Source: a virus
Taxonomy: Duplodnaviria; Heunggongvirae; Uroviricota; Caudoviricetes
Strand: one strand, 5' to 3'
DNA length: 64,000 bases
Virus record (IMG/VR): IMGVR_UViG_3300026521_000088
Span: 32,551 to 96,550 of that record
Part shown: in pieces, positions 2,752-41,239 of the stretch
How the letters are laid out: each line of letters starts with the position of its first letter
Numbering within the stretch: position 1 is the stretch's first letter
The notes under the pieces: model-generated
What the model was told of the DNA's origin: nothing
The model's database searches: none
The model's input: only the letters and a program-made list of their open reading frames with translations
Program-made: the position numbers and the translations under genes

Positions 2752-3978
2752 TTAATATCTTACATCCCAACCTCTGTCTTCTAATGTATCAGCATTATCT
2801 TTACCGTCATCACTAGGTTCTTCTTTATTGTCTTCTAAGTACACACTACCATCTTCTATACCACTATCAACTAAAGCTTGTAATATGTTATCTAGTGCTT
2901 CTTGATCTAAATTGTTTTCATTAAAATTTATATATGTAAGTTTTTCTATTTTATCTAAACCTAATGGTTCTTCATAACAACTACATCTCAAACAATCTAA
3001 ATACTCAAGATTCACCATAGTATCACCAAAATCTAATTGATGGTCTACATAATGTTGTCCACAAATATCTATATGTGTAAGTTTAGGTAAATCTTTTAAT
3101 CCATTAACATTTGATAAACCTCCTTCATAATGTCCAGGTCCCCATATTCTACTAACATCAACATACTCTAACTCAGTTAAACTACTTAAATTATCTAAAT
3201 CACCTATCAAACCATCGTTGTGAGCAAGGTCTATATATTTTAATTTTTTACAATTATGCAAATCAGCTATTCTACCATCTAAAAAAGTAAATGGTAATTT
3301 TAATACTTCTAAATTAGGACAATCTATAAATTTACCGTATAAAGTACCACCATTAAAACCACCACCATACCAAGCACCTCTTGATTGTATATATCTTAAA
3401 TTAGGCATATTATTAAAGTAATAATCTAGTTTAGTCCTAATATGTGTACCCTCTACATTTAAGTATTCTAGTTTATGCATATTTTGCAAACAAGTAACAG
3501 GTCCTGTTATAGGTGTATCGTATAGACTTAATGTTTTTAAATTTACAAGATTTTTTAAATTATCAAAAGAATCTGTAAAACTATCATTTAAATCACTTAA
3601 TGTTAAATGTTCTAAAGTAGTACACATACTAATATTAGCTAAACCAGAACTAAACCCAGCATGTTTAAAATATAACTTTTTTAATTTAGTAAAATATGTT
3701 AATCTAGGTAATGGGCTATTAGGAATATCATTACCATTTTTATCTACAGGTCTTATCCATACCCCACCATTTACACCTATTTCAGTAAACTCTGTACCTT
3801 CTATAAAATTTAATTTATTAACACCAAATTTGAATGTGAATGGTGTACCTGTTTCTACATATTCATCATTAATGTACATGAATTTAGTATCACCTTCAAA
3901 TTGTTGTATTGGGTCACTTAATGTATTACCCAAAAACCAATACCACATAACAGGGAATGGGAATTTTTTACTATACAT
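2752..3978 (-). CDS. leucine-rich repeat (LRR) protein
   Basis: Repeated L-x-x-L-x-L-x-x-N/T units (e.g. LEHLTLSDLNDSFTDSFDNLKNLVNLKTLSLYDTPITG..., LEYLNVEGTHIRT..., LKYIDLAHNDGLIGDLDNLSSLTELEYVDVS), typical of BspA/internalin-type LRR folds. Confidence 0.6.
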   Translation of the reverse strand: MYSKKFPFPVMWYWFLGNTLSDPIQQFEGDTKFMYINDEYVETGTPFTFKFGVNKLNFIEGTEFTEIGVNGGVWIRPVDKNGNDIPNSPLPRLTYFTKLKKLYFKHAGFSSGLANISMCTTLEHLTLSDLNDSFTDSFDNLKNLVNLKTLSLYDTPITGPVTCLQNMHKLEYLNVEGTHIRTKLDYYFNNMPNLRYIQSRGAWYGGGFNGGTLYGKFIDCPNLEVLKLPFTFLDGRIADLHNCKKLKYIDLAHNDGLIGDLDNLSSLTELEYVDVSRIWGPGHYEGGLSNVNGLKDLPKLTHIDICGQHYVDHQLDFGDTMVNLEYLDCLRCSCYEEPLGLDKIEKLTYINFNENNLDQEALDNILQALVDSGIEDGSVYLEDNKEEPSDDGKDNADTLEDRGWDVRY

Positions 3979-3990
3979 AATTTTCCTTTA

Positions 3991-4476
3991 TTATTTAAAT
4001 ACACCAAATTTTAAAGCTTTAGCCATATCATTTGGTGATGTTTTACAAGGTATAAGATTTCTAAATTCTGGTATATACAATTGAAGTTCTTTAGTACATA
4101 CTTCACTACAAAAACTTTTAGTTTTATCTTCATGTATATTTTTAAATACAAACCCTAATAAACCTAAATAATCATACTTTTCTTTTTTCAATACTCTCTG
4201 TTCGCACCTAGCTCTAATAGTATCTTCATCTTGTTTAGATATATTTAATTTTAATCTATCCCAAGCTGTACCTGTAAAGCTATGTTTTTTAAATCTTACT
4301 TTATTTTCATAAGAACTAGCACTAAACATCATACCATCTGAGAAAACTATTTCTACATGACTATATGTATATTTCCATTTACCATTTAATTTATAAGACA
4401 ATGGAGAAGTCCACCATCTTACAAATTTACCATAAATACTTCCATAGTTGTTACCATAAAATGCTAAATACATCAT
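3991..4476 (-). CDS. permuted papain-fold peptidase (NlpC/P60 superfamily, YiiX/C92-like); putative peptidoglycan peptidase
   Basis: YSHVEIVFSDG ... KSFCSEVCTKEL matches the YiiX-type arrangement (SHVG-IY His motif preceding a C-S-E-[LV]-V catalytic Cys motif). Confidence 0.5.
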   Translation of the reverse strand: MMYLAFYGNNYGSIYGKFVRWWTSPLSYKLNGKWKYTYSHVEIVFSDGMMFSASSYENKVRFKKHSFTGTAWDRLKLNISKQDEDTIRARCEQRVLKKEKYDYLGLLGFVFKNIHEDKTKSFCSEVCTKELQLYIPEFRNLIPCKTSPNDMAKALKFGVFK

Positions 4477-11497: not shown

Positions 11498-14488
11498 TTA
11501 CTCACTATAACTATCATAAGCTGTAGACTCTGTATCATCATCTATAATACCCCAGATATACTCATTCATAGGACTATTTCTTTTAGCTTTTTTAACTGCT
11601 TCAGCATTTTCAAATTCTTTAGCAGGATATATAATATCTATCATATTTATTTGAGAAATTAAATCTAATCCATCATCATGTTTAGAACCTATACTTGTAT
11701 ATGATGTATACTTAATCTCTTCCATAAGTTCTCTCATATCTGGAGTATCTTTTAAAGCTTCATTAAACCATATCTTTCTATTTTGAAATAATGGTAACAT
11801 TTGTCTAAATCTCCAATGTTTATTACCACCTTCAAGTCTACTCCTAATACCTTCAGAACCTATCTTAGCTCCTTTTTGTCTAGCAAAACTAAAGAATGTA
11901 TTTCTATCTACCATCATTTGTTTTAAAGAGTATATATGAATATTTTGTTGTCCATCTACTTCAACACCTACATCTACCCATCTAGCATTACCAAATACAC
12001 TTTCAACCATTTTAAAAGTTGTTCTATATTGTTCTTCTAACTCCATTTTCTTTAATGTTAAATCTACTAAAAATATATCACCACTACTAGCTACTGCCCA
12101 TAATGCTGCACCACTAAAATCACTACCTTTACTACCTGTACTTGTATAATCTGTAGTTAAATACCAATTGTATTGACTAGCTCTAGCTTTTATTTTAGCT
12201 GTGTCTATAAATTGTATTAAAGACTCTGGTACTAACCTATCTTCTTCATTACTAATTCTTAGCATTAATTCTTGATTAAATTCCCTTATAGAATTAGTCC
12301 CTAAAGCATCTTCATATCTTTCTTTAACTCTTTCGTAAGAATGCATAGGTTCCCAAGCTCCTACAAACTCTTTCTTAGTTATATTGTCATCTATCTTTTC
12401 ACACATAGGTATACAAACTGGTGTCCAAGTACCAGATTCTAATGCTTGGTATACTGGATCATTTTTATTAAATGGTGTATTAATTGCTATAATTTTACCT
12501 TTCTTACCACCTAAAGCATTTTCAGCATCAGCATACATCATAGACTTAAGTTTTTTCATAATAATTTTAGAATTAGCATCAGCCTCATTCTTAATAATAT
12601 CATCAAAAATAATACAGTTTTTAGATATACCAAATAGTGTACTATAAGCATGGTTTTCCCCAATTACTTTTTCAATATCCCTATTATTACACTGTATAGG
12701 TATTAAGTCTAGGTCTTTTGTTTCCTCTACACTTTTTACTTGTCTCCATAACATACCATTCTCTATATGTACTTGTTTAAACTTTACCTTTGTACTGGCC
12801 GATACATCAATATTCAGTATTTGCTTTACATTTTCTACCAATCTTAGTTCCCATTGATGGTTAATATTGTGTTCTTTGTTAGTTGAATTAAATACTTGTA
12901 CACCACTTCTTTTTGTATTGCGTATATAAGTAGGTAGTCCTAAACGACTAGAAATGACTTGTAGTTGTTTTAATACATTTAAATTAACACTATTTATCCT
13001 TACCTGTTGACTAACTTTCTTATTATCTATATATCCATCAGCAGCTATGTAACCAAGTAATAAATTTTTTTGCTTATTTAAGGTTATACGCATTACCCAA
13101 TCTGGCATATTTTTAATACTATTTCCACTTTTTTGGGACTTCAACCAATTTGACATGTCTGTATCGGATGTAACAATATTATAACAACCTGAACCAAACC
13201 TCTGGATACTATACTTTTTACCAAGACTATCTAGTATACTACATACTTTTTTACCAATAGTTTTCTCTTGGGTATTTGCTATAGTGTAAATTATATTACT
13301 ATTAGATATAGTCCCATCACCTAACCACAAACCATAAAGCCACCACCAATCATCGTTATCAAACTCAGTAAACTGAATCTTTTCTAACTTACTTATTTTC
13401 CTAGTTTTAAGAATCCTACCTTTAGAATCTCTAGCTATGATTTCATCATAGTATTTAACACATTCTACCAATGGAGGGTTGATTTCAGTATAATCAATCA
13501 TTGACCCAATCCAATGTCTATTTGTTAACTTGCTAGCTTCTTCCCAGCAAGCTTCATATTCAATATAATTTTTTACTAATTTTTTACTAGTTCTACACCA
13601 TACTTGGTCATTGGTACACTTTTTAGCCCAGTATTTGTGGTCTTTGCTAACAAATTCTGATTCTGTCAAACCTCTTACTTTAATTTCATACCCATTTTCA
13701 ATAAACCCTTCAGCCTTGATGGGGTGTTCTTCTATAGGATATGTACCGTACTCTGTTGTAACAATAGTCCCTCTTACATGACATTGAGGTCTTTCTGTTT
13801 TATATCTAATACCCCTTACAGAACCTCCAGCAGCACCTTTAACTTTATACATAAATGACCTAGATTTTATAGACTTATTTTCACCAGGTAGTTGCTTTCT
13901 TAAGAACTCACATTCTTCATCTGTAAATCTCATTTTTTCAAAATATTCTTTACAAAATAATGAATCCTCACATATATCTCTAATAGTATTAGCTTGAACT
14001 TTAGCTCCAGCTTGTTGTGAATCACCAAACCCTACTACAAACATAACATCACCAAAATTAGGCATCTTACCTTTTATTGCCAAGTATATAGGTAAAAATG
14101 CTGTAATAACTGTACTTTTAGCTAAACCTCTAGAACACATAATAGCTATTTTTCTATTATTAATTCTAATACTATCTTGAATTTCTTTTGAATATGGGTA
14201 TTGATGTCTTTTAATATTACCAAATACTAAGTCTACTAAAAAGTAATGCATCAAAGAGTTTTCCACTTCAAAGTCTTGTCCTTGTACTAATCGCATTAAA
14301 CTAAAAAATTCTATAGCATCTCTGCTAGGTAAATACCCACCAAATTTTAAATCCATATTATTTAGTGCTTCATCAATATTAAATTTATATTTTTTATTAG
14401 GTACTAACTGCACATCAGGCAAATCTTCTATATCGTTAGCGTTTTCTAAATACTCTTCCCACTCTTTACTTATTTTTTTATTACTCAC
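11498..14488 (-). CDS. terL: terminase large subunit interrupted by an in-frame intein with LAGLIDADG homing endonuclease
   Basis: N-extein has terminase Walker A-like MCSRGLAKST; the sequence resumes as CIIFDDIIKNE (Walker B hhhhDD) after a 389-aa insert beginning with Cys (RPQ|CHVRGTIV...) and ending ...ISKN|C; insert carries two LAGLIDADG motifs (WLYGLWLGDGTIS and LLLGYIAADGYID). C-terminal part is nuclease-domain sized. Confidence 0.85.
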   Translation of the reverse strand: MSNKKISKEWEEYLENANDIEDLPDVQLVPNKKYKFNIDEALNNMDLKFGGYLPSRDAIEFFSLMRLVQGQDFEVENSLMHYFLVDLVFGNIKRHQYPYSKEIQDSIRINNRKIAIMCSRGLAKSTVITAFLPIYLAIKGKMPNFGDVMFVVGFGDSQQAGAKVQANTIRDICEDSLFCKEYFEKMRFTDEECEFLRKQLPGENKSIKSRSFMYKVKGAAGGSVRGIRYKTERPQCHVRGTIVTTEYGTYPIEEHPIKAEGFIENGYEIKVRGLTESEFVSKDHKYWAKKCTNDQVWCRTSKKLVKNYIEYEACWEEASKLTNRHWIGSMIDYTEINPPLVECVKYYDEIIARDSKGRILKTRKISKLEKIQFTEFDNDDWWWLYGLWLGDGTISNSNIIYTIANTQEKTIGKKVCSILDSLGKKYSIQRFGSGCYNIVTSDTDMSNWLKSQKSGNSIKNMPDWVMRITLNKQKNLLLGYIAADGYIDNKKVSQQVRINSVNLNVLKQLQVISSRLGLPTYIRNTKRSGVQVFNSTNKEHNINHQWELRLVENVKQILNIDVSASTKVKFKQVHIENGMLWRQVKSVEETKDLDLIPIQCNNRDIEKVIGENHAYSTLFGISKNCIIFDDIIKNEADANSKIIMKKLKSMMYADAENALGGKKGKIIAINTPFNKNDPVYQALESGTWTPVCIPMCEKIDDNITKKEFVGAWEPMHSYERVKERYEDALGTNSIREFNQELMLRISNEEDRLVPESLIQFIDTAKIKARASQYNWYLTTDYTSTGSKGSDFSGAALWAVASSGDIFLVDLTLKKMELEEQYRTTFKMVESVFGNARWVDVGVEVDGQQNIHIYSLKQMMVDRNTFFSFARQKGAKIGSEGIRSRLEGGNKHWRFRQMLPLFQNRKIWFNEALKDTPDMRELMEEIKYTSYTSIGSKHDDGLDLISQINMIDIIYPAKEFENAEAVKKAKRNSPMNEYIWGIIDDDTESTAYDSYSE
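12617..13783 (-). mobile_element. intein (aa 236-624 of TerL) with double-motif LAGLIDADG homing endonuclease domain
   Basis: Boundaries inferred from Cys1 (C236) and C-extein Cys (C625) flanking ...SKN; LAGLIDADG blocks present; insertion immediately upstream of terminase Walker B. Confidence 0.7.
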
Positions 14489-18408: not shown

Positions 18409-19068
18409 ATGAATACAAATAACCAGACACAACAAACATTTAAAGAATTATTAGCAGCAAAAGTAGCAGAACAACAAGCTAAAGCAGAAGAGTTAAGGCT
18501 AGAAGCACAGATGAAATTACTTGATGACGAAAAGTATTTAGAGTCAGTTCGTAAGACAGAAGCTATGAAAAAAGAGACATCAAGACTAAATACAATTATG
18601 AGATCTATCAATACTATGGAACCATTTGTTACACCAAAAGGTGAGAAATTTGGTATTAGATGTTTTCCAGTAAGTTTCTTTGGATTAGGACATAGCTTAG
18701 TAATGGGTATTGTCTTGTCATCTGCTCAAGCCTTTACAGAAGAAAAGTTAATGGAATATTCAGCTATTTCAGGAGTAAATGAAATTCTATTACAACAAGC
18801 TGTTATAGCATTTGGCAGACCAGCTTACTTTAGTAAAGATGGTAAATTGATAGATGAAGAGAAAGGAAACTTTGAAGAGTTCTCAGCTCTACTAACATCA
18901 GTCTATATGGAGCTAGAACTTATGGAGTTTGCTGCTTCAGATATTACAGAAGCTAAGTATAATGCTTATTTTGAAAGAGAGTTAAAGAAAGCTAAAATCC
19001 AAAAAGAAGAGTTTGAGAAAGCTGAGATTCTAGATAATGAAGGAGGTGACTTCGTTATCAATGACTAA
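18409..19068 (+). CDS. putative N-terminal fragment of split T7-like single-subunit RNA polymerase
   Basis: Assignment by position and size: 219 aa + 231 aa places the DWRGR motif at ~aa 450, comparable to T7 RNAP (DWRGR at ~421-425); helical, charged composition like the T7 N-terminal domain. No diagnostic motif in this piece itself. Confidence 0.4.
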   Translation: MNTNNQTQQTFKELLAAKVAEQQAKAEELRLEAQMKLLDDEKYLESVRKTEAMKKETSRLNTIMRSINTMEPFVTPKGEKFGIRCFPVSFFGLGHSLVMGIVLSSAQAFTEEKLMEYSAISGVNEILLQQAVIAFGRPAYFSKDGKLIDEEKGNFEEFSALLTSVYMELELMEFAASDITEAKYNAYFERELKKAKIQKEEFEKAEILDNEGGDFVIND

Positions 19069-19151
19069 AAGATAAGTAAGTAGTCTTAGGACTGCTTATG
19101 TAACCAGCACTATTGTTATATATATATTATTAATTCTGTAGGAGGAATTAA

Positions 19152-19847
19152 ATGATAAGAAATCAAATATTAGATGGAAAGTTAGCGTTACCTGAAATAA
19201 CAGGTTTTGAAGAAAAATATGGTAAAGATATATATAGTAAGATAGATTACATGTTCCAAGCTATGTTTAGAGCATACCTTAAACAAGGTACAAAAGGTAC
19301 CATATCTTTACCATATTGGATTAAGAAGATAGAAAATGTTAAAGCAGTTAATAGTGCTTTAATAGTTCTATCTAAATCAGGTTGGGTAACATCTGTTTCA
19401 AATCCTAGTAGGAATTGGGCAGAAGCTTACATAAATGAAGATAAACTACTTGAGTATGTAACTAAAGAAGAGTTAGCTCAGGTTAGATTGAACAATAAGT
19501 TTAATGCTTATGTCCTAACAAATACTGAAAAAGCAGTATCTAACAATAAAGTTAGAGTAACTGGAAAAGTTATGGAAACAGGTTTAATTAGAGAAGGTTT
19601 CAGAAAAGCTGGTAATGTTGAGTTTGAACTTGATACTGGTACAATAGCTAAGTACCATGACGAGGTAATAGCTCTAGTGAATAAAGGTATTGAAAAGATG
19701 GCTAAAAAGCATAGCTCTATAAAAGAAGACTTAGCTAATTATGCTATAACAGGTGAAGAAGTAGTTGAGTCTTATATTTATGCTGAAGGTATGACATATA
19801 CTCCTGGACAAAATAGTATAGATTGGAGAGGTAGAAACATCAAGTAA
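19152..19847 (+). CDS. middle fragment of split T7-like single-subunit RNA polymerase
   Basis: ORF ends ...NSIDWRGRNIK*, i.e. the conserved DWRGR motif of T7-type RNAPs; the next ORF continues with the NPxG segment that follows DWRGR in T7 RNAP. Confidence 0.7.
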   Translation: MIRNQILDGKLALPEITGFEEKYGKDIYSKIDYMFQAMFRAYLKQGTKGTISLPYWIKKIENVKAVNSALIVLSKSGWVTSVSNPSRNWAEAYINEDKLLEYVTKEELAQVRLNNKFNAYVLTNTEKAVSNNKVRVTGKVMETGLIREGFRKAGNVEFELDTGTIAKYHDEVIALVNKGIEKMAKKHSSIKEDLANYAITGEEVVESYIYAEGMTYTPGQNSIDWRGRNIK

Positions 19848-19900
19848 GATGTTCTGCCTTAGGTTATAAAAATATATATAAAAAATAAAAGGGAAGAAAA

Positions 19901-21136
19901 ATGAGTATGTTAGATAAAATTGGTAATCCAGTAGGTTTTAAGATTATGAGAGCTATGTTAGTAATTCCAGAACAATATAGAAACATTGCAACAGCTAACG
20001 GACTTAAAAATGTGTATCTATTTATAGGTGAGTTATTAGGTTATAAGAATGGAACTGTTCAAGGTAAAATTGAGTTTGGTAGAGAAGCATACTTTAACAG
20101 AACTTTAATTGAAGATATAGAGTTAGATGACTTATATGAGAATATATGGTTAGAAAGACTTTATGAAGATATTGATAGAGTTTTAAATGTAAGAGGAAAC
20201 TATCAGAAAGTTCTAACTTTAAGAAAGTATGAATTAGGTACTATGACTTTAGAAGAATGTGCTAAAGTTATTGAGACATTTGAATATAGAAAATGGTCTG
20301 TACCTATAGAGATAGATGTGTCTGCTAGTGTATTAGCAATCATAGGACTTCTATTAGGGCATAAACCATTTATGAAAAGAACTAATATGATTGGTAACAC
20401 TATTCAAGATGCTTGGAAACATGATGTAGTAACTAACAGAGTACAATTCAAAAGTATTATGAGAATAATTTATGGTTCGTCTATGCCAACTAGCCAAATG
20501 TGGTTAGAGGATGATATTCAGTATACAACTGAAGAGTTACAAGCATTTAGCCAAGAGTTAAAAGATGGTGAGTTAGCTGTAGCTGCTAAATTCAGAGACT
20601 TTCTGATTAAGAATGCTAATATGAAAGAAGAGATGAATATAGTAGTAGACAAAGAAGAGTTTACAATCTACTGCAACAAATTCAGAAATGTAGGTGAGAA
20701 GACTACAAAGTATGATGTATATAATTCAGCTACAAATTCTATCAGAACAATTCAGAATACAAGTACTAAAAAAGTACCAGATTTAAAGAGATTTGCTGTA
20801 AGTACTGTGACTACACTCATTCACAATTTAGATTCACAATGTATGAATAACACAGTAGAAGCAGTAATAGATAAATTTGGATGGGTTATAGACATTCATG
20901 ATGCAATTATAGTTTGTCCAGAAGTTGTAGATTATGCTAGAGATATATACTGTAGTGGTACAGATTCTGATAAACCGAGTTTAGAAAGAATCTATAGAGA
21001 AAGAAATAGTATCCTATCTAAGTATTTTACAAGTATTGGTATTAGACCAAGTAAAATAAAAGAGTGGGGTGAAGTTATGAGTAAAGTAGATAAATTTGAA
21101 GGAGAGTTTAGATGTAACAGAATTGTACTAAAATAA
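19901..21136 (+). CDS. C-terminal (palm/fingers) fragment of split T7-like single-subunit RNA polymerase
   Basis: Begins ...DKIGNPVGFKIMRAML (cf. T7 FNPQGNDMTKGLL); motif A IDVSASVLAII (cf. T7 FDGSCSGIQHF), motif B NRVQFKSIMRIIYGSS (cf. T7 RSVTKRSVMTLAYGSK), motif C IDIHDAIIV (cf. T7 LIHDSFGT). Own SD (aaagggaag) before the ATG. Confidence 0.85.
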   Translation: MSMLDKIGNPVGFKIMRAMLVIPEQYRNIATANGLKNVYLFIGELLGYKNGTVQGKIEFGREAYFNRTLIEDIELDDLYENIWLERLYEDIDRVLNVRGNYQKVLTLRKYELGTMTLEECAKVIETFEYRKWSVPIEIDVSASVLAIIGLLLGHKPFMKRTNMIGNTIQDAWKHDVVTNRVQFKSIMRIIYGSSMPTSQMWLEDDIQYTTEELQAFSQELKDGELAVAAKFRDFLIKNANMKEEMNIVVDKEEFTIYCNKFRNVGEKTTKYDVYNSATNSIRTIQNTSTKKVPDLKRFAVSTVTTLIHNLDSQCMNNTVEAVIDKFGWVIDIHDAIIVCPEVVDYARDIYCSGTDSDKPSLERIYRERNSILSKYFTSIGIRPSKIKEWGEVMSKVDKFEGEFRCNRIVLK

Positions 21137-21139
21137 AGA

Positions 21140-21194
21140 CTTAAGTAGGTGACCTGTATAGGTTACTTGCTTAAGTTATTTTTTTTTTTTTTTT
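21140..21194 (+). terminator. rho-independent terminator after the RNAP gene
   Basis: Imperfect hairpin (cttaagtaggtgacc ... ggttacttgcttaag) followed by a 16-nt T run (21179-21194); a second T13 run at 21265-21277. Confidence 0.6.
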
Positions 21195-22745
21195 GATTTT
21201 AATGAACTAACTTTTTAAGAAGCCAAGTAATAACTAAAGTATCTTTTATAAGGTATTTTAGTTATTTTTTTTTTTTAAATTAATAAACATAGTGGATAGT
21301 ATTTATTAAGATATTAGATATTTATTACTTTTTATTATAAGAAAAAACTTATTGATAAAGAGAGTAAGTAAAATAGATACTAAATAAAAAGGATATGTAA
21401 TAATACAACTGACAAAAAAACTATCAAATACATTACTTGTAGAAAGTTTGTGTGGAGATGGTAATAATATAACTTTACTATGGGTTAAACCTGCTAACTT
21501 ATTTACTACACCACACGATGAACTATTAAATATTAATAGTATGTTATTATTAAATTTAGAAGCATTAATATATAATAAATAAAAGGATATATATGATTCA
21601 ATTAATGAAATTTCAAAATAAAGATTCAAATAATGCAATTAGTAGGAGTAATATAGGCTACTGTAATTATATAACTTCATTGTGGTTTATGGTTATTCTT
21701 CCAGATATTAAATCTATTAATGCTTCTAAAAGAATGTTAGTACATCTAGATGGGTTAATAATGGATAATATAAATGAAAAGGTATATATATATGACACAA
21801 ATACTAAAGACTAAAGGTGGAACAAGTACAAGAATTCAAATTACTAGAACAACTACACCTATATGTGTAACATCATTATGGTATGCATCTCAAACTTTAT
21901 TTAGTAAAAATAGGTTTGATGGTAACATTAGACTACTGATAGATTTAGAAAGATTAGTAATAAAAACTTATAAAGGTGTACTTAATGATTCAATTATTAG
22001 AAAGATATAAAAATGTATCTTATGGGTTAGTTTCATATAATAGATATTTTTCAAGAGTATCTATTATTATAACAAAATTTTCTAGATTTAATGCTAATAA
22101 TACTCTTATAGTATGTTTAAATGATATAGATGTATATGCTAATTTAAAGGATAAAAATGATTAACTTAATTAGATATAACAGTGGGGTTATAGCATACGG
22201 TAATTATTACGATAAACATATAACTTTTTTATGTATAGTCGGTATATGGGAAATAAGTATAAATAAAAATTTGTTAAAAAATTTAGATGAACTAATGCTA
22301 ATAAAATAAGGATTTCTATGTTACAAATAATGAAGATAAAAAATAATGTAAGATTAAATTGGTTAGGTTATAGCTTATATTGTATAACAGATTTACCATA
22401 TTTATCAAATATACAGTTAATTAACACACCTTATGGTAGTAATAATAGGGGTTTATCAACACTTATTAATATGTATACTTTTAAAACATGTAAGGATTAA
22501 AAAATTATGACTCAAGTACTTAAAAGACATGTTACAGATTATAAGTTACATTATTCTAGTATTTTCATAGTAAATAATCATATTTTATCAAAATACTGGT
22601 TTTTCTTAACTGATTGTAGAAAAATAAATCAAAATATATTAGTTAAGTTAGGTTGTAGCAATATAAAAATTTAAGGATATATTAGAAAATCTATTAATAT
22701 TTAGATTTGCTAAATAAATAAGATATATAAAATAAAGGAATTAAA

Positions 22746-23090
22746 ATGACAACAGAGCAGTATATTAGAGAAAAGAATAAATTAGTTTATAAAGCTACAG
22801 GTATGGTGTTAGTACCAGAAGATCAAATTATTGATATGGGGTATAAAGATACTTTTAGAGCTACAGAACATTTAGATAAGTTGAGTTGTCCTTATTGTCT
22901 TTATTATTTTGATAATGACTGTAAAGGTTGTATTATGTATGAAAAAGGTAATGGTTGTTTAGACGGATATGGTTCATACGAGCGTATAGTTGAATATCTA
23001 GAAAATACGGAATGCTTAAATAGTGATTATGATGTTATTCCAGGATTATATGAATTAGGTGTGAAATATAAAGAAAGTAACGAAAGGTAA
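22746..23090 (+). CDS. Cys-rich small protein (possible zinc-binding)
   Basis: CPYCLYYFDNDCKGC and further Cys pairs; good SD. Confidence 0.5.
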   Translation: MTTEQYIREKNKLVYKATGMVLVPEDQIIDMGYKDTFRATEHLDKLSCPYCLYYFDNDCKGCIMYEKGNGCLDGYGSYERIVEYLENTECLNSDYDVIPGLYELGVKYKESNER

Positions 23091-23093
23091 AAA

Positions 23094-23651
23094 ATGTATA
23101 AATTTAATAGGATAGAGACTAAAGTATTAGAAGCTTTAGCTAAATTAGATAGATGGAGTATTGTAGGAGCTAAAGCTCTATCTTATTATGGTGTACATAG
23201 ATTTACTAAAGATACTGATATTTTATGTCATACAGAAGTAGCTAAAAGTATACTAGAAATATTTAAACAACAAGGGTTTAATATAACCTATTGTGATATA
23301 TCTCAAGTAAATGCTGTAAAAGATGGTGTAGAGTTTGATATTCTTATTACTTCTGCACCAGAATATAGTAATGCTTTAACTAAGCAAAAAGGTACATACT
23401 ACACTACTTGTAGTGGTTTATTAGATATGTACTTATTAAGTGATAAAGAGCAGAATCAATTTGATGCTGTTAATCTATTACAGAGTAATAGTAATTGTAA
23501 ACCTAGTGAAGAAGTAGTTAGTATAGAACTGGGTAGATACCAATATCTTTTAGAGAAATCTAAAGAAGATATTAAGTATTTCAAACCTAGAGCATTATCT
23601 GATGAATTTAACCTAGAAGAGTTATTACTAGAGTTAGATGATATTGAATAA
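23094..23651 (+). CDS. nucleotidyltransferase-fold protein, AbiEii/DUF1814-like
   Basis: VGAKALSYYGVHRFTKDTDILCH matches the G-[GA]-x-A-L-x(4)-G-x-x-R-x-[ST]-x-D-[IL]-D signature of AbiEii-type (pol-beta superfamily) nucleotidyltransferases. Confidence 0.5.
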   Translation: MYKFNRIETKVLEALAKLDRWSIVGAKALSYYGVHRFTKDTDILCHTEVAKSILEIFKQQGFNITYCDISQVNAVKDGVEFDILITSAPEYSNALTKQKGTYYTTCSGLLDMYLLSDKEQNQFDAVNLLQSNSNCKPSEEVVSIELGRYQYLLEKSKEDIKYFKPRALSDEFNLEELLLELDDIE

Positions 23652-23667
23652 ATTTAAAGGATAAAAA

Positions 23668-24258
23668 ATGAAGAAAATGACAACATTATTTAAAAAAACA
23701 GATGATCAGTCTAAAGTTATTGATGAACTTAGAGAAGAGAATAGATGGGTTTTAGAAAATTCTACAGCATATAGAAAATGGGATGGTACAGCTTGTGCTA
23801 TTATTAATGGAAAATTATATAAAAGATATGATGCTAAAATCAATAAAAAAACAGGTAAAAGAAAAATACCACCAGCTAATTCTATTGCTTGTCAAGAACC
23901 AGATGAAATAACAGGGCATCAACCATATTGGACTCCAGTATTAGATGAAAATAAAAGTGATAAGAGAATGTTAGATGCATTTAATAAAATTGTAGATACA
24001 AAAATTTTAAGTAAATACCCTTCAAAGTATGATGGAACTTACGAGTTTTGTGGACCTAAAGTAAATGGTAATCCAGAACAATTAAAAGAACATGTACTTA
24101 TACCACATAAAGAAGAAAAACTAGATATAGTTGATTATAGTTTTGCAGGGTTAAAACAATACTTAACAGATATTAATATTGAAGGTATTGTATTTTGGAA
24201 TAAAAATAATGATAAAAAATGTAAGATTAGAAAAACAGATTTTAATATTAAAAGATAG
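23668..24258 (+). CDS. small covalent nucleotidyltransferase (ATP-dependent RNA/DNA ligase-like, KxDG)
   Basis: Motif I RKWDGTACAI (KxDG), motif IV-like EGIVFW, motif V-like KCKIRK; 196 aa, so a minimal ligase-like domain. Confidence 0.5.
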   Translation: MKKMTTLFKKTDDQSKVIDELREENRWVLENSTAYRKWDGTACAIINGKLYKRYDAKINKKTGKRKIPPANSIACQEPDEITGHQPYWTPVLDENKSDKRMLDAFNKIVDTKILSKYPSKYDGTYEFCGPKVNGNPEQLKEHVLIPHKEEKLDIVDYSFAGLKQYLTDINIEGIVFWNKNNDKKCKIRKTDFNIKR

Positions 24259-24341
24259 AATCTTAAATATTATAAAAATTAGTAGGTATTTATAATAGGT
24301 TCATTTAATCTAATATAAAATATTAGATCAAAGGAGTAGTA

Positions 24342-24536
24342 ATGAAAAAGTTAGTAATTAATGTAATACTTATTACTTCAGTATTTAGTAGTACTGATAT
24401 AGTAACTAACGAATGTGCTATAGCTCTAACAGAAGCTACTAAAATACATGCTAAATATATGGATGGTAATGTATCTATAACAGAAGATTATAATACTTAT
24501 AATTTAGCATTAAACATATGTAATATAAAAGGATAA
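24342..24536 (+). CDS. small protein with N-terminal hydrophobic segment
   Basis: 64-aa ORF, SD aaaggag. Confidence 0.4.
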   Translation: MKKLVINVILITSVFSSTDIVTNECAIALTEATKIHAKYMDGNVSITEDYNTYNLALNICNIKG

Positions 24537-25933: not shown

Positions 25934-26019
25934 GCTGCTATGGTGGAAAGGTAGACACTGAAGGCTTAAAACCTTCTGACTGAAAAGTCGTCCCAGTTCG
26001 AATCTGGGTAGCAGTACCA
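25934..26019 (+). tRNA. tRNA-Leu (anticodon TAA), type II with long variable arm, CCA encoded
   Basis: Acceptor GCTGCTA/TAGCAGT, anticodon arm GAAGG-CTTAAAA-CCTTC, variable stem-loop, T arm CCCAG-TTCGAAT-CTGGG, then ACCA. Confidence 0.8.
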
Positions 26020-26021
26020 AA

Positions 26022-26095
26022 TCTCCAATAGCTTGAAGGTCAAGCAAATGACTGTTAATCATTAGTTGTAGGTTCGATTCCTACTTGGAGAGCCA
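26022..26095 (+). tRNA. tRNA-Asn (anticodon GTT), CCA encoded
   Basis: Acceptor TCTCCAA/TTGGAGA, D arm GCTT-GAAGGTC-AAGC, anticodon arm AATGA-CTGTTAA-TCATT, T arm GTAGG-TTCGATT-CCTAC, then GCCA. Confidence 0.8.
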
Positions 26096-26164
26096 ATATA
26101 TAATTATAATAACTAACTATTAGCTATTAAATATAGGTTAAAACTTATATAGTTAACCATTTAT

Positions 26165-26240
26165 GTTGTACTGCTACCTGGGGTAGATATAGTAATATAT
26201 AGATAGTAATATCTTATAGGTTCGAATCCTATGTACAACA
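26165..26240 (+). other. tRNA-like element / degenerate tRNA (acceptor stem and T arm intact, anticodon region replaced by an ATAGTAATAT tandem duplication)
   Basis: GTTGTAC...GTACAAC acceptor pairing and ATAGG-TTCGAAT-CCTAT T arm are perfect, but no canonical anticodon stem can be drawn; 10-nt direct repeat inside. Confidence 0.3.
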
Positions 26241-26667
26241 CCTCCTACAAATAAGTAGTAAAGTTTATAGTAGAAAATTTTTAACATACCTATTTCCTTT
26301 TAAAGTATGTATTTTCATTTTCCTTCCCTTTTTAAATTTTAACTGACAAACTATAATTCTACTATAAACCTACTACTTATTATTTTTAATAAACCAATAT
26401 TTATATTGATTTATTAAAAATAATAATATACATATATACAAGGATTTACTATGTTACAAGTACTTAATCATAAGTATACATTTGCAAGAACAACTACTAA
26501 AGGATATTATGTAAAATATTATATATTTTCTTTTATACATTTTAGAAAACAACTACATCTACTACATATACGCAATTATAATAGTATAAAAACATTAGAT
26601 GAGACTCTATTATCTTTAATATAGACTATAAAATATTATAAATAATTATAATAAATAAAGGAAAATA

Positions 26668-26850
26668 ATGATACAGATAATTGAAAGTACTAAAATACAT
26701 ACTGATACTCTTAGTAGGTTAGACACTAGTCATATTGTGAAAAACATAGTTGATTTTTATATTAGACAAATGCCATATAACAATAATGGAATTATACTAT
26801 TACAACTTACTGCATTAATAGTAGAGGTTACAGATGATACAGAATGTTAA
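26668..26850 (+). CDS. small protein, MIQ paralog family
   Basis: AAATAAAGGAAAATA-ATGATACAG start; ~60 aa; shares MIQ...DFY...LL pattern with neighbours. Confidence 0.5.
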   Translation: MIQIIESTKIHTDTLSRLDTSHIVKNIVDFYIRQMPYNNNGIILLQLTALIVEVTDDTEC

Positions 26851-27031
26851 TACAATATATTCTAAAATGTATGATCCTAGAAACAAGTATAAATTACATT
26901 ATAGTCAGGATACTGAGGATTTTTTTATTAATTGGTACTTATCTTCACAACTTTTAGATAGTAATAGTAGTATTTTATATAAACTAACAGAATATCTACT
27001 AGACTATACACAACAAAATAAAGGAAAATAA
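26834..27031 (+). CDS. small protein, MIQ paralog family
   Basis: MIQNVN... with ...TEDFFINWYL core; overlaps neighbours. Confidence 0.5.
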   Translation: MIQNVNTIYSKMYDPRNKYKLHYSQDTEDFFINWYLSSQLLDSNSSILYKLTEYLLDYTQQNKGK

Positions 27032-27219
27032 TGATACAAAATATAGCTGCTAATACTAAACTTATTCATAAATTTATATCTAAACCACATATTATAAAAA
27101 GTACCTCTGATAATGATTTTTATATACCCAATCTATTATCTGGTACACATACAAGAATACTAGCAGGTATTGTTATGTTAGTAATAAAGGGTGCTGATGT
27201 TGCAAAATATAAGACATAA
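27031..27219 (+). CDS. small protein, MIQ paralog family
   Basis: AAATAAAGGAAAATA-ATGATACAA start; ...NDFYIPNLL core. Confidence 0.5.
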   Translation: MIQNIAANTKLIHKFISKPHIIKSTSDNDFYIPNLLSGTHTRILAGIVMLVIKGADVAKYKT

Positions 27220-27388
27220 TATTAGTAAGAACTTAATAGGTGTAAGATTAGTACTTGATCAAGATAAAAATATTTATATTACTAAAAATATTTTTTATAC
27301 TCAAGTATATATAAAAAATAAAATAAGTAAAGTATGTACTAAACTTTTGAGAAATACAGTCTACCTACTTTATAAAAATACTAAATAA
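27191..27388 (+). CDS. small basic protein
   Basis: 65-aa ORF in the same tight array. Confidence 0.35.
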   Translation: MLMLQNIRHNISKNLIGVRLVLDQDKNIYITKNIFYTQVYIKNKISKVCTKLLRNTVYLLYKNTK

Positions 27389-27406
27389 ACAAATAAAGGA
27401 AAAAAT

Positions 27407-39201: not shown

Positions 39202-39803
39202 AAACAATTAAAATATTAAGTAAAGAGCCGCTTGCAAAACCAAAGTTTCTTAAAACAGAACTTGTAACTTACCAAAAAGATAATGAAAAACCAAGACAAT
39301 GGGAAGTTTTACAAGGATTTGATACAGTACACATTCTCATTAAAAATACTGATACAAACAAGTTCTTGTTAGTCAAGCAAAACAGAATACCTGTAGCTGT
39401 CAAAAATACTAATCAAGGTATTTGTATAGAATGTTGTGCAGGGATTATTGATAAATACCAACATTCAAAATCATCTTTATATCAAGCTAAATTAGTAGCT
39501 AGAGATGAGATACTTGAAGAATTAGGTTATCATAAAGAAAATTTAAAGGATATTGAATTAGTAGACACATTACTAAGTTCAGTAGGCACTGTTGGTTCTA
39601 AACAATACTTGTTCTATTGTGAAGTTAACGATTCTGAATATACAGGACAACATTTAGAACCAGATGAAGAAATTGAAGTTATTGAATATACAAGTAATGA
39701 TTTAATGGATTTAATATTTAAAGAGTATAATACAGACTCGGTGACTAAATATTTATGTTTAAATCATATTGGAGAAATATATAACATAAAGGATAATTTA
39801 TGA
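39186..39803 (+). CDS. Nudix hydrolase (ADP-ribose pyrophosphatase-like; NatV C-terminal-domain equivalent)
   Basis: Nudix box-like ...LVARDEILEELGYH...; overlaps the NMNAT gene by 16 nt and the NadV gene by 4 nt. Confidence 0.6.
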   Translation: MEVMVKTIKILSKEPLAKPKFLKTELVTYQKDNEKPRQWEVLQGFDTVHILIKNTDTNKFLLVKQNRIPVAVKNTNQGICIECCAGIIDKYQHSKSSLYQAKLVARDEILEELGYHKENLKDIELVDTLLSSVGTVGSKQYLFYCEVNDSEYTGQHLEPDEEIEVIEYTSNDLMDLIFKEYNTDSVTKYLCLNHIGEIYNIKDNL

Positions 39804-41239
39804 GTAAACTATTAGAATCAACATTAATAACAGGAGATAGTTATAAATATGGGCATCCATTTCTATTAAGAGATGATATAGCTTATCAATATAACTATAT
39901 GGAAGCAAGAAAAGGCGATGATATAATATTTGTAGGTATGCAATATTATATTAAAAAGTTTCTAACAAAAGTACCATCAAAGAAACAAATTAAAAAAGTT
40001 AAAAAGATGGCATTAAAGCATGGAATTTATTTTGATGAAAAGATGTGGAAATACATCAATAAATTAGGATATTATCCAATTAGAATTAAAGCAATACCAG
40101 AAGGAACAAAAGTACCATCAGGTGTACCATTAGTTACTTTTGAAAATACAGATCCAGAATGTGTAGGATTAGTAGGTTTTCTTGAAACTCTGTTTATGAA
40201 AGTATGGATGCCAACATCGGTTGCTACGCAAAGCTATGAAGTTAAACAGATGTTATTAAAGTATGGTTCACCTGAATGGGCTGAATATGCTTATCACAAT
40301 TTTGGTTCTAGAAGCACAACATCATTAGAACACGATATGATTGCTGGATACGCACACCTAACACAATTTAAAGGAACTGACAGCTTTTCTTCACTATTCT
40401 TTTGCGAAAAATACTATAATCAAGGGAAAGAACCAGCAGGATATTCAGTATTAGCAACAGAGCACTCTGTTACTACAATGAATGGTATAGAAAACGAAGA
40501 AGAGTTTGTATATAAAACATTATTAAATAATCAAAATAGTCAAATTATCTCATTTGTTGGAGATTCTTATGATATTTATAAATTTACAGATTTTGTAACA
40601 AATCCAAACGGTAGAATAAGAAAATTACTAAACAAAAGAAAAAACCAAAAACTTGTAATTAGACCAGATAGTGGAGAACCAATTAAAGTACTTAAAGGTG
40701 TTATTGATATAATGAAAAACAATGATTGTTTTAATTCTGGAATAGAAGGTAAACTATTGTCGCCTAAATACGGAATTCTTTGGGGTGATGGTATAACACA
40801 AAAAATAATTGAACACATTCTACAATACTTCACTAATGAATCTTATAGACAATTCATGATAAATAGTAGTACAGACATACTAGCAACTAAAATTAAAAAT
40901 TTACAATTACTAGCAGCAGAAAACTTTGTATTTGGTTCTGGGACAGACTTAGTTAATTCAAAAGATAGAGATACTTATGGATTTGCTATTAAATGTTCAT
41001 CAGTTACACTTAAAGATGGTACAGAGCTAGATGTATTCAAAAATCCTATAACTGCACCTACTAAAAAATCGAAAAGAGGTAGAGTAGAAACAGCATTTAA
41101 CACAGCAAAGAAAACATATAGAACAACTAAAGGTGGGTATAAAGATATAGAAACGAAAGCGTTACAGTTAATATTTGAAGATGGTAAGTTATATAATGAA
41201 ACTTCCCTAGAAAACATTAGAAGTAACAGTTTAAAATAA
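39800..41239 (+). CDS. nadV: nicotinamide phosphoribosyltransferase (NAMPT/NadV)
   Basis: N-terminal TGDSYKYGH (NAMPT DSYK motif), 479 aa, typical NAMPT length and composition. Confidence 0.75.
   Translation: MSKLLESTLITGDSYKYGHPFLLRDDIAYQYNYMEARKGDDIIFVGMQYYIKKFLTKVPSKKQIKKVKKMALKHGIYFDEKMWKYINKLGYYPIRIKAIPEGTKVPSGVPLVTFENTDPECVGLVGFLETLFMKVWMPTSVATQSYEVKQMLLKYGSPEWAEYAYHNFGSRSTTSLEHDMIAGYAHLTQFKGTDSFSSLFFCEKYYNQGKEPAGYSVLATEHSVTTMNGIENEEEFVYKTLLNNQNSQIISFVGDSYDIYKFTDFVTNPNGRIRKLLNKRKNQKLVIRPDSGEPIKVLKGVIDIMKNNDCFNSGIEGKLLSPKYGILWGDGITQKIIEHILQYFTNESYRQFMINSSTDILATKIKNLQLLAAENFVFGSGTDLVNSKDRDTYGFAIKCSSVTLKDGTELDVFKNPITAPTKKSKRGRVETAFNTAKKTYRTTKGGYKDIETKALQLIFEDGKLYNETSLENIRSNSLK

Follow-up and report, generated by a model that had tools for sequence, protein, structure and literature searches.

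The two genes described here lie next to each other on the plus strand of a 64-kb window, i.e. the whole stretch of DNA analysed, which belongs to a contig of at least 104 kb from an uncultured, tailed and very AT-rich phage. ORF1 encodes a small nucleotidyltransferase (NTase) of the Pol-beta fold and ORF2 a minimal RNA ligase (Table 1). They are separated by 16 nt, the sequence AAAGG(T/A)AAAAAATG stands 5' of each of them, and they are probably co-transcribed. Both adjacent ORFs, as well as all the motifs quoted in a preliminary description of this DNA (GAKALSYYGVHRFTKDTDIL, KWDG and EGIVFW), were found where that description had placed them. These motifs go beyond chance matches, since they are nearly invariant in relatives (150 ORF1-type and 36 ligase sequences), and both ORFs are real conserved genes, as is evident from the existence of homologs (50–90% identical to ORF1; more than 1,600 sequences in the case of ORF2).

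The region of ORF1 is early-looking and rich in small ORFs. An Rfam scan detected two tRNAs and nothing else, a sigma-70 promoter scan gave no excess over background, and the GC content of ORF2 showed no anomaly and no sign of foreign origin. The sequence TAGTAGGTTCATT, present after ORF2, was considered as a repeated promoter-like element and rejected (12 matches with ≤2 mismatches vs 5.6 expected, mostly intragenic).

Table 1. Features of the ORF1–ORF2 locus and related genes of the window.
Feature	Position (nt)	Strand	Remarks
ORF0	22746–23090		Missing from the closest relative, L006
ORF1	23094–23651	+	185 aa; small Pol-beta-fold nucleotidyltransferase, MenT1-like fold, 'Tyr-type' subfamily
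NTase motifs I/II, G25-A26 ... R36-x-T38-x-D40-x-D42	23166–23225	+	GAKALSYYGVHRFTKDTDIL, residues 25–44; aligned to MenT1
D82 (EFDILI), third Pol-beta-type metal-site carboxylate	23337–23339	+	Aligned to the Asp of MenT1 VVVDLLF
C-terminal subdomain motif, Y113-LLS-D-K118-E-Q120-N-Q-F-D124	23430–23465	+	From profile alignments to MenT1
Acidic C-terminal tail, FKPRxLxDEFxLEELLLELDDIE	23580–23648	+	Conserved, phage-family-specific
'Ligase slot'	23654–24282	+	Present in the window; unrelated DNA instead in the closest relative, L006
ORF2	23668–24258	+	196 aa; RLIG1/C12orf29-family minimal ATP-dependent 5'-to-3' RNA ligase, NTase domain only
Ligase motif I, K37-W-D39-G40	23776–23787	+	KWDG, residues 37–40; K37 is the predicted AMP-accepting lysine
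Ligase motif Ia, R53	23824–23826	+	Aligned to Yasminevirus R89
Ligase motif III (E126) and motif IIIa (H147)	24043–24108	+	Aligned to Yasminevirus E174 and H195
Ligase motif IV (E172-GIVF) and motif V (K186-I-R-K189)	24181–24234	+	Pattern match only; EGIVFW, residues 172–177, at 24181–24198
tRNA-Leu and tRNA-Asn genes	25934–26095		1.7 kb downstream of the ORF1/ORF2 pair
Homolog of the UvrD-like helicase gene of L013/L014	54237–55739		About 30 kb from ORF2

ORF2, a ligase of the RLIG1 family

ORF2 clearly belongs to the RLIG1/C12orf29 family and is, by fold and catalytic residues, a minimal 5'-to-3' RNA ligase. It had previously been read as a covalent nucleotidyltransferase of the KxDG type, and this was borne out by a full-length match to PHROG 14301 ('RNA ligase'; E 2.3e-57) and by matches to Yasminevirus RLIG1 (PDB 9c6l) in sequence (E 1e-5), profile (E 1.2e-12) and fold; it is an RLIG1-family protein and not an Rnl2 or DRB0094-like ligase, the examples named at the same time for a profile search. 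In a Foldseek search with the AF2 model of ORF2 (pLDDT 91.3), the best match was 9c6l_A (E 4e-10, TMq 0.77) and the top 12 were all Yasminevirus RLIG1 chains (TMq 0.70–0.77), followed by the far weaker T4 Rnl1 and Naegleria Rnl. The model and the Foldseek matches revealed a minimal ligase NTase fold to which no further RNA-binding domain is attached. This single-domain fold and the catalytic motifs I, Ia, III and IIIa are shared with the RLIG1 proteins of Yasminevirus (277 aa) and human, which are longer and contain insertions that ORF2 lacks. ORF2 itself is too divergent for direct scoring by the Pfam family RLIG1 (PF17720; no match even at E≤1), and this family was matched by 33 of its 36 close homologs (49–67% identical).

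The K37-W-D39-G40 motif of ORF2 aligns with K73-T-D75-G of Yasminevirus RLIG1, and the alignment with the K73M mutant chain (9c6m) starts one residue after the mutated Lys. The E172-GIVF and K186-IRK189 motifs resemble LEGVV (E240) and YKLHR (K253) of Yasminevirus by pattern rather than by residue alignment; from this pattern and the whole-chain fold match we infer that E172 and K186 are equivalent to E240 and K253. Residues K37, D39, G40, R53, E126, H147, E172–F176 and K186–K189 are invariant in alignment A2, which comprises the 36 ligase homologs. The roles of the active-site residues of Yasminevirus RLIG1 have been described (PMC11071452, PMC11494293).

Ligases of this type are already known and annotated from cultured phages. 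Along its entire length ORF2 shows 46% identity to gp057 of Cellulophaga phage phi10:1, annotated as 'RNA ligase', and homologs in Ralstonia phage RP12 and in mycobacteriophages carry the same annotation. The human and Yasminevirus RLIG1 proteins, as well as some homologs from bacteria and viruses, are known to auto-adenylylate with ATP and to seal RNA with 5'-P/3'-OH ends; RLIG1 homologs seal tRNA anticodon loops, and the bacterial and viral ones join tRNA halves in vitro (PMC11494293, where the phage of origin of the assayed 'C. phage RLIG1' is not stated in the text). By homology, ORF2 would be a 'sealing-only' ligase, in which ATP adenylylates K37, the AMP would then be passed to the 5'-phosphate of the RNA, and attack by the 3'-OH would close the nick. 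Its likely substrates would be nicked tRNA anticodon loops or other broken 5'-P/3'-OH RNAs, and its role may be counter-defence against host RNA-cutting systems.

ORF1, a distant relative of MenT1

The protein encoded by ORF1 has three parts: an NTase core, a C-terminal subdomain made up of helices, and an acidic tail at the C-terminus. Direct profile searches against Pfam, PHROGs, NCBIfam, padloc and PDB sequences gave nothing significant: there was no match to AbiEii (PF08843) at E≤1, the only NTase-family match listed being PF14907 (E 0.14), and none in the padloc defence library. A PDB match of the close-family profile to FIH (E 0.05) was located on the acidic tail and was rejected as spurious. 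MenT1 was reached with E 0.24 by ORF1 alone and with E 0.14 by the close-family profile; the wider family profile matched it with E 1.4e-14, a value that is significant only via intermediate sequences, which came from an exhaustive representative search.

The predicted structure of ORF1 shows a bi-lobed NTase fold like that of MenT1, MenT3 and MenT4, and the nearest solved structure by fold is MenT1 (PDB 8AN4), a toxin of the AbiEii/AbiGii family. Confidence in the model is only moderate overall (pLDDT 77) and poor in the catalytic loop (residues 25–40); the tail was modelled as helices (pLDDT about 62–68). A BFVD fold search yielded weak matches to miscellaneous viral NTases (TM <0.5), none of them informative. 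ORF1 is a small Pol-beta-fold nucleotidyltransferase from a rare, phage-restricted subfamily, with a fold close to that of MenT1. Eight close homologs were detected among 5.8 billion proteins, all of them from related uncultured phages; tblastn with ORF1 gave no match in a set of 50,697 phage genomes, and blastn of the region gave only one match, of 169 nt, to an uncultured phage of 636 kb.

MenT1 (Rv0078A of M. tuberculosis), to which ORF1 is only about 16% identical, is a DUF1814 tRNA nucleotidyltransferase toxin that adds CMP to tRNA 3' ends (PMC10435456) and whose residue roles have been described (PMC10435456, PMC11375011). Residues G25..R36-T38-D40-D42 of ORF1 were aligned to G..R37-F-T39-R-D41-V-D43 of MenT1. 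The DxD is kept (D40-T-D42 in place of D41-V-D43), and among 150 ORF1 relatives the core residues are conserved in 100% (G25), 98% (R36), 99% (D40) and 98% (D42) of sequences. T38, which is invariant in these relatives (100%), corresponds to the auto-phosphorylation site T39 of MenT1 (PMC11375011), and position 82 is occupied by D in 89% and by E in 6% of them. ORF1 differs in having G-A where MenT1 has G-G; motif I of AbiEii is hG[GS].

The C-terminal subdomain motif corresponds to K137 ... R146 ... Q148 ... D152 of MenT1, with Tyr113 in place of Lys137 (K189 in MenT3), a residue that MenT1 requires for nucleotide binding and toxicity (PMC10435456, PMC11375011). Position 113 is K in 118 and Y in 25 of the 150 relatives; the Tyr is found in all 25 members of the subfamily of ORF1 ('Tyr-type'), and sequences with Y113 co-vary with A26, S116 and K118. 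D124, aligned to D152 of MenT1, is kept in 95% of the relatives. The acidic tail is an addition relative to MenT1; its residues F163, K164, P165, R166, L168, L174, E175 and L177 are invariant in alignment A1, a similar tail is present in the outgroups P0129–P0131, and it is absent from more distant ORF1 relatives.

These distant relatives match NTP_transf_5, DUF6036, AbiEii and Aminoglyc_resit. The families DUF6036 (PF19502), DUF2204 (PF09970) and NTP_transf_5 (PF14907), to which distant relatives of ORF1 belong, have the RxTxDxD core in common with it, although ORF1 and its 'Tyr-type' relatives fall below their curated cut-offs. We know of no function for any of these three families.

In the preliminary description ORF1 was credited with an AbiEii/DUF1814 signature, and part of this reading stood, namely a Pol-beta NTase with MenT1 as the nearest relative. 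As judged from the sequences, the term 'AbiEii-like' is true of ORF1 at the level of the superfamily and does not denote membership of the family: ORF1 is placed outside AbiEii because of the lack of a direct family match, the replacement of Lys137 by Tyr and the lack of a conserved antitoxin-like neighbour. In contrast to MenT1, it is phage-encoded and has no MenA-like gene beside it. Since the metal site (D40, D42, D82) and the nucleotide-contact residues R36, K118, Q120 and D124 are intact, ORF1 would most likely still transfer an NMP from an NTP to a hydroxyl acceptor, for which the 3' end of RNA or tRNA may be the best guess.

Gene neighbourhoods of ORF1 and ORF2

Analysis of related sequences did not support the proposal that the two genes form a functional NTase-plus-ligase module. 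No ligase was found near ORF1 in any of eight related ORF1-bearing lineages (L001, L002, L003–5 (the same gene as in L025/26), L006, L007, L008/9, L010/11 and L019–21; 1.7–10 kb examined on each side), and none of 80 viral (IMG/VR) ligase loci contained an ORF matching the NTase profiles; the commonest neighbours in these loci were terminase-like and portal-like genes. In cultured phages, ligases of the RLIG1 type stand alone.

The closest relative, L006, carries an ORF1 that is 90% identical and is not accompanied by a ligase, other small genes occupying the ligase slot. Blastn matched positions 23083–23653 of the window to 2753–3320 of L006 (92%), and positions 24335–24535 to 3797–3996 (95.5%); between these matches L006 contains 476 bp with ORFs of 89 and 56 aa. 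The motif TATTTATA[AG]TAGGTTCATT stands after ORF1 in L006 and after ORF2 in the window. Two other sequences, L013 and L014, contain the ligase together with homologs of three or four further genes of the window, and in these the ligase lies either upstream of a UvrD-like helicase gene or a few kb away from it.

No conserved antitoxin-like or other partner gene was detected beside the ORF1 homologs, whose upstream and downstream neighbours are unrelated across seven lineages; the only shared gene is a 45-aa membrane-like ORF, present in L001 and L010 only. In several relatives the ORF1 homolog lies directly upstream of a T7-like phage RNA polymerase gene, of which tblastn and HMM searches found no homolog in the window. 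The distant 'Tyr-type' relatives showed no TA-like pattern, their contigs being too short or their neighbours unrelated. By sequence reading, some of these neighbours resemble UV-endonuclease-like and ketosynthase-like genes.

The adjacency of ORF1 and ORF2 was found only in this phage, and the pair is therefore not a conserved two-gene system. On balance we consider it probable that a MenT1-like NTase and an RLIG1 ligase have come together incidentally here, as independent accessory genes made adjacent by mosaic gene shuffling in an early/middle plus-strand block. The close spacing, co-orientation and probable co-transcription of the genes run counter to an incidental adjacency. Moreover, published work connects both families with tRNA (MenT1 with 3' ends, RLIG1 with anticodon loops) and two tRNA genes are located nearby, so the two products may co-operate in this particular phage.

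Possible roles of the two proteins

The acceptor of ORF1 might be something other than RNA, either a small molecule, as in the case of ANT(2'') and LnuA, or a protein, as for the MNT antitoxins that AMPylate HEPN toxins; ORF1 could then inactivate a host defence effector or signal. This is unlikely, given that matches to antibiotic NTases are mostly confined to the shared NTase core and that the strongest link of ORF1 at the sequence level is to MenT1.

ORF1 might also be a toxin of the AbiEii/MenT type, acting in a TA or exclusion module or in early host shutoff, with extension of the 3' CCA ends of host tRNAs blocking their charging. It is in keeping with this that MenT1 is the best fold match, that T38, D40 and D124 match T39, D41 and D152, that the locus is early-looking with small ORFs around it (and, in relatives, directly upstream of the phage RNA polymerase), and that the phage has tRNAs of its own. 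We nevertheless regard a toxin as quite improbable, because the Lys needed for nucleotide binding and toxicity of MenT1 is Tyr throughout the subfamily, PF08843 is not matched, no antitoxin-like neighbour is conserved (the flanking genes differ in every lineage), and a phage that poisoned all tRNAs would poison itself as well.

There is little likelihood that the two proteins constitute an RNA repair or modification pair, in which, for example, the NTase would rebuild or modify tRNA 3' ends and the ligase would reseal anticodon-loop breaks made by host defence. The arrangement of the genes, the neighbouring tRNA-Leu and tRNA-Asn genes and the action of characterised relatives of both proteins on tRNA (MenT1, PMC10435456; RLIG1, PMC11494293) would fit such a pair, but the linkage is kept in no other lineage examined, L006 has ORF1 without an adjoining ligase, and ligases of this type are solitary in cultured phages. 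A known parallel is the repair of tRNA by T4 Pnkp and Rnl1 after cleavage by the PrrC anticodon nuclease, proposed by the RLIG1 authors as a functional analogy for viral RLIG1 homologs (PMC11071452). ORF2 is likewise a predicted phage-encoded 5'-to-3' RNA ligase; however, it belongs to another ligase family than Rnl1 and lacks the C-terminal tRNA-binding domain of the latter, and its neighbour is an NTase, whereas the partner of the T4 ligase is a kinase-phosphatase. No end-healing enzyme (PNK, phosphatase or HD), and hence no counterpart of Pnkp, was present among the Pfam families listed (25 of 33) for the window's 47 largest ORFs, and the annotations around the ligase genes of phi10:1, RP12 and Collard include none. 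Equally doubtful is a more specific version, in which ORF1, as a 'Tyr-type' MenT1-like branch acting on RNA 3' ends early in infection, would form with the RLIG1 ligase a two-step repair unit free of a kinase-phosphatase. Such an ORF1 might serve host takeover, or the repair or masking of ends attacked by defence systems.

Finally, the replacement of the MenT catalytic Lys, the conserved acidic tail and the RNA polymerase adjoining the ORF1 homolog in several relatives would suit a dead NTase-fold scaffold or decoy, whose tail could bind, for example, a phage or host polymerase, yet this is most improbable, as all three metal-binding carboxylates, G25, R36, T38 and D124 show little or no variation even between highly divergent relatives, which is typical of active enzymes.

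The incidental adjacency of an RLIG1 ligase and a MenT1-like NTase, which we favour, indicates that a functional pair cannot be deduced from the proximity of two genes in an early region that is mosaic. ORF2 is a further phage example of the recently defined RLIG1 family and supports the idea that stand-alone 'sealing-only' RNA ligases occur widely in phages as mobile accessory genes, possibly directed against metal-dependent RNases whose products have 5'-P/3'-OH ends. ORF1 is the more informative half of the locus: this relative of tRNA-modifying toxins is very rare and confined to phages, and it combines an intact metal site with a Lys-to-Tyr replacement at a residue essential in MenT1 and with a conserved acidic tail. 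If ORF1 acts on tRNA, it would represent a toxin fold used on the side of the phage.

A small nucleotidyltransferase with a MenT1-like fold

ORF1 encodes a small Pol-beta-fold nucleotidyltransferase (NTase), which is MenT1-like in fold and lies outside the AbiEii family. No significant match was obtained when Pfam, PHROGs, NCBIfam, padloc and the phage genome collection were searched directly with this protein, and only 8 homologs (50–90% identity) were detected among 5.8 billion proteins; an exhaustive profile search added 35 more distant ones. In the combined alignment G25, T38, D40 and D42 are invariant and R36, D82 and D124 nearly invariant, and members of this set match NTP_transf_5, DUF6036, Aminoglyc_resit and AbiEii, mostly under the curated cut-offs. 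The acidic C-terminal tail (FKPR..L.DEF.LE.LLLELDDIE) is conserved in the close family and in three outgroups. Among the small NTases around MenT1, DUF6036 and NTP_transf_5, ORF1 forms a rare and divergent branch.

The combined profile matched MenT1 (the M. tuberculosis tRNA nucleotidyltransferase toxin, PDB 8AN4) with E 1.4e-14 over ~135 positions. In the comparison with solved structures the highest score was obtained for MenT1 (10.2), followed by TM1012 (9.5), ANT(2'') (8.8), MenT3/TglT and LnuA (8.6 each) and MenT4 (7.6). Functional residues of MenT1, taken from PMC10435456 and PMC11375011, were mapped to ORF1 by profile alignment: R37, T39, D41, D43, R146, Q148 and D152 correspond to R36, T38, D40, D42, K118, Q120 and D124, respectively. 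The metal triad is preserved, which speaks for an active enzyme. The one position singled out as differing is K137, required for nucleotide binding and toxicity of MenT1 (PMC10435456, PMC11375011), which is Y113 in ORF1. Of 150 ORF1 relatives, 118 have Lys and 25 have Tyr at position 113; Tyr113 goes together with G-A at positions 25-26, Ser116 and Lys118, and Lys113 with G-G and Arg118. The census thus shows Tyr113 to be a subfamily signature.

The preliminary description had called ORF1 AbiEii-like. Its identity as an NTase and the MenT1-like fold stand, but membership of the AbiEii/MenT toxins does not: ORF1 lacks the catalytic Lys, a Pfam match and an antitoxin partner. We can only infer that ORF1 works "like" an AbiEii/MenT NTase, and the analogy with MenT1 tentatively points to an RNA 3' end as its putative acceptor.

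An RNA ligase of the RLIG1 family

The adjacent gene, ORF2, encodes an RLIG1-family RNA ligase, a newly added member of a known phage ligase family that has been annotated before. Its ligase-like character, proposed at the outset, is borne out by a PHROG match, a structural match to RLIG1 and invariant catalytic residues. PHROG 14301 ("RNA ligase") matches ORF2 end to end (E 2.3e-57). More than 1,600 homologs were found, and identities of 36–46% (tblastn) were observed to the annotated "RNA ligase" of Cellulophaga phage phi10:1, Ralstonia phage RP12 and a mycobacteriophage cluster; an identical protein is recorded on a 104-kb metagenomic contig. ORF2 itself is below Pfam detection in the PF17720 search, and 33 of 36 aligned homologs match this family ("RLIG1, RNA ligase 1"). 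The PDB sequence search matched only Yasminevirus RLIG1 (9c6l/9c6m; E 1e-5 for ORF2 alone, E 1.2e-12 as a family profile). The confident structure model (pLDDT 91.3) matches the fold of the same chains with TM 0.70–0.77, and other ligases score far below.

The active site in the Yasminevirus crystal structure comprises K73, D75, R89, E174, H195, E240 and K253 (PMC11071452, PMC11494293). The first five correspond to K37, D39, R53, E126 and H147 of ORF2 by residue alignment, and the last two were matched by pattern to E172 and K186; across the family alignment none of the seven varies. Since ORF2 belongs to the RLIG1 family and its active-site residues are invariant, the family mechanism is assumed, in which a lysine would be adenylylated, the AMP would be handed to the RNA 5'-phosphate, and the 3'-OH would then attack. 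Published RLIG1 enzymes ligate 5'-P/3'-OH ends exclusively and can seal tRNA anticodon loops in vitro (PMC11494293), and viral copies have been proposed to oppose tRNA-cleaving defences (PMC11071452); by analogy, ORF2 might have such a role.

Linkage of the two genes

Both ORFs of the preliminary description are present at the very positions it gave and are co-oriented, with a gap of 16 nt (see the table); the peptide strings quoted from them lie at residues 25-44 of ORF1 and 37-40 and 172-177 of ORF2, and the broad enzyme classes had been assigned correctly. An AAAGG(T/A)AAAAAATG start region precedes each ORF. The suggestion that they form an RNA-repair or RNA-modification pair, or a toxin-like module, did not hold up: linkage was found neither in eight ORF1 lineages nor in 80 viral ligase loci, and the pairing is not conserved.

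Coordinates of features in the window and in loci of relatives (L numbers)
Feature	Position	Strand	Size or content
Large terminase subunit ORF	11498-14488	-	996 aa
Three successive ORFs	18409-21136	+	219, 231, 411 aa
Terminator-like hairpin	21138-21177	+	18 pairs, then T run
Small ORFs only	21180-22745, 26100-27400		44-78 aa
ORF0	22746-23090	+	114 aa
Homology to L006, ORF1 block	23083-23653
ORF1	23094-23651	+	185 aa
ORF2	23668-24258	+	196 aa
~20-nt motif	24284-24305; L006 3322-3343
Homology to L006, next small gene	24335-24535		95.5% identity
tRNA-Leu(TAA), tRNA-Asn(GTT)	25934-26095		plus-strand block
NAPRTase ORF	39800-41239	+
UvrD-like helicase homolog	54237-55739
ORF downstream of ORF1 homolog	L001 6435-9059; L003 5636-8341; L010 2655-5198; L011 1478-4021		847-901 aa
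Second NTase-looking gene	L002 4398-4955		185 aa
Closest ligase homologs	L013 856-1461; L014 5001-5582		61-63% identity

The surroundings of ORF1 were fetched for 7 of the 8 homologs and the nearest outgroup; in these eight lineages no RLIG1-like gene occurs in the 1.7–10 kb examined on each side. The most telling case against conserved linkage is the closest relative, L006, whose ORF1 is 90% identical as protein (~92% as DNA). Homology with the window spans ORF1 and restarts at the next small gene; between these blocks lie the ligase in the window and 476 bp with unrelated 89-aa and 56-aa ORFs in L006. A ~20-nt motif, TATTTATA[AG]TAGGTTCATT, follows the ORF2 stop in the window and the ORF1 stop in L006, an arrangement that would fit insertion of the ligase gene in front of the motif, and likely marks the recombination boundary of the ligase cassette; no clear repeats of it were found elsewhere in the window. 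The neighbours of ORF1 change from lineage to lineage; all that recurs, in some relatives, is a T7-like RNA polymerase gene immediately downstream. ORF0, the upstream gene, ends 3 nt before ORF1 but is absent from L006 and so does not qualify as a conserved ORF1 partner; its Cys-rich product (CxxC...CxxC) gave no significant match in the family search.

In four loci an 847–901-aa ORF lies directly downstream of the ORF1 homolog; in L010 and L011 this ORF contains a single-subunit RNA polymerase domain of the T7-like type (PF00940), and no homologs of the four proteins were detectable in the window. In L002 a second, unrelated NTase-looking gene (LTGSRAYTGY...DSNYDICLL) lies just upstream of the ORF1 homolog, with Anti-Pycsar Apyc1-like genes and a PF01068 ATP-dependent ligase, all within 3 kb.

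The loci with the closest ligase homologs, L013 and L014, contain no ORF1 homolog and have only three or four further homologs in common with the window. There a UvrD-like helicase lies downstream of, or a few kb from, the ligase; its window homolog is ~30 kb from ORF2. Because the ligase lies near the helicase in these loci and near ORF1 in the window, it appears to occupy different genome positions. In a census of 80 IMG/VR loci that carry this ligase (+/-6 kb), none of 2,310 ORFs matched either NTase profile at E<=0.01; recurrent ligase neighbours resemble terminase and portal genes (cluster representatives, read by eye), in agreement with the annotated arrangement of phi10:1. No NTase or kinase is annotated next to the ligase in RP12 and mycobacteriophage Collard, and the 25 Pfam families listed, out of 33, for the 47 largest ORFs of the window, itself part of a genome, include no polynucleotide kinase/phosphatase-type domain. 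Joint action of both enzymes in this single phage is improbable.

The surrounding genome region

The window, with a GC content of only 20–30%, represents phage genome surroundings: a minus-strand block up to ~16.6 kb includes the large terminase subunit gene, and the plus-strand block contains genes for DNA polymerase A, helicases, NAPRTase and amidase. A DNA-level search found no close cultured phage for this region.

The terminase (PHROG 38) has a ~380-aa insert with a LAGLIDADG domain. The 621-aa homolog of L003 lacks this insert, with residues 1-202 and 584-951 directly joined there; the insert looks like an intein or a homing-endonuclease insertion. The three successive ORFs match PHROGs of unknown function, their summed length approximates that of a T7-type polymerase, and the 411-aa ORF gave a faint match (E 0.04) to the C-terminal portion of a PHROG for phage RNA polymerase; they could represent a polymerase that is split or very divergent. 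The strong hairpin directly 3' of this ORF suggests a transcription-unit boundary ~1.9 kb upstream of ORF1. Many of the small ORFs start with MIQ, MTQ or MLQ and some have a common start region, AAGGAAAATAATGATACA; they may reflect a paralogous early-gene family or conserved gene-boundary sequences. NAPRTase and NAMPT-type NAD-salvage domains occur among the large ORFs, around 39800-41239; the ORF at these coordinates is homologous to the NAPRTase gene of L014 and might counter NAD-depleting host defences. Overall, the region of ORF1 and ORF2 is an ordinary mosaic early-gene region, and ORF1 is its one mildly interesting orphan enzyme.
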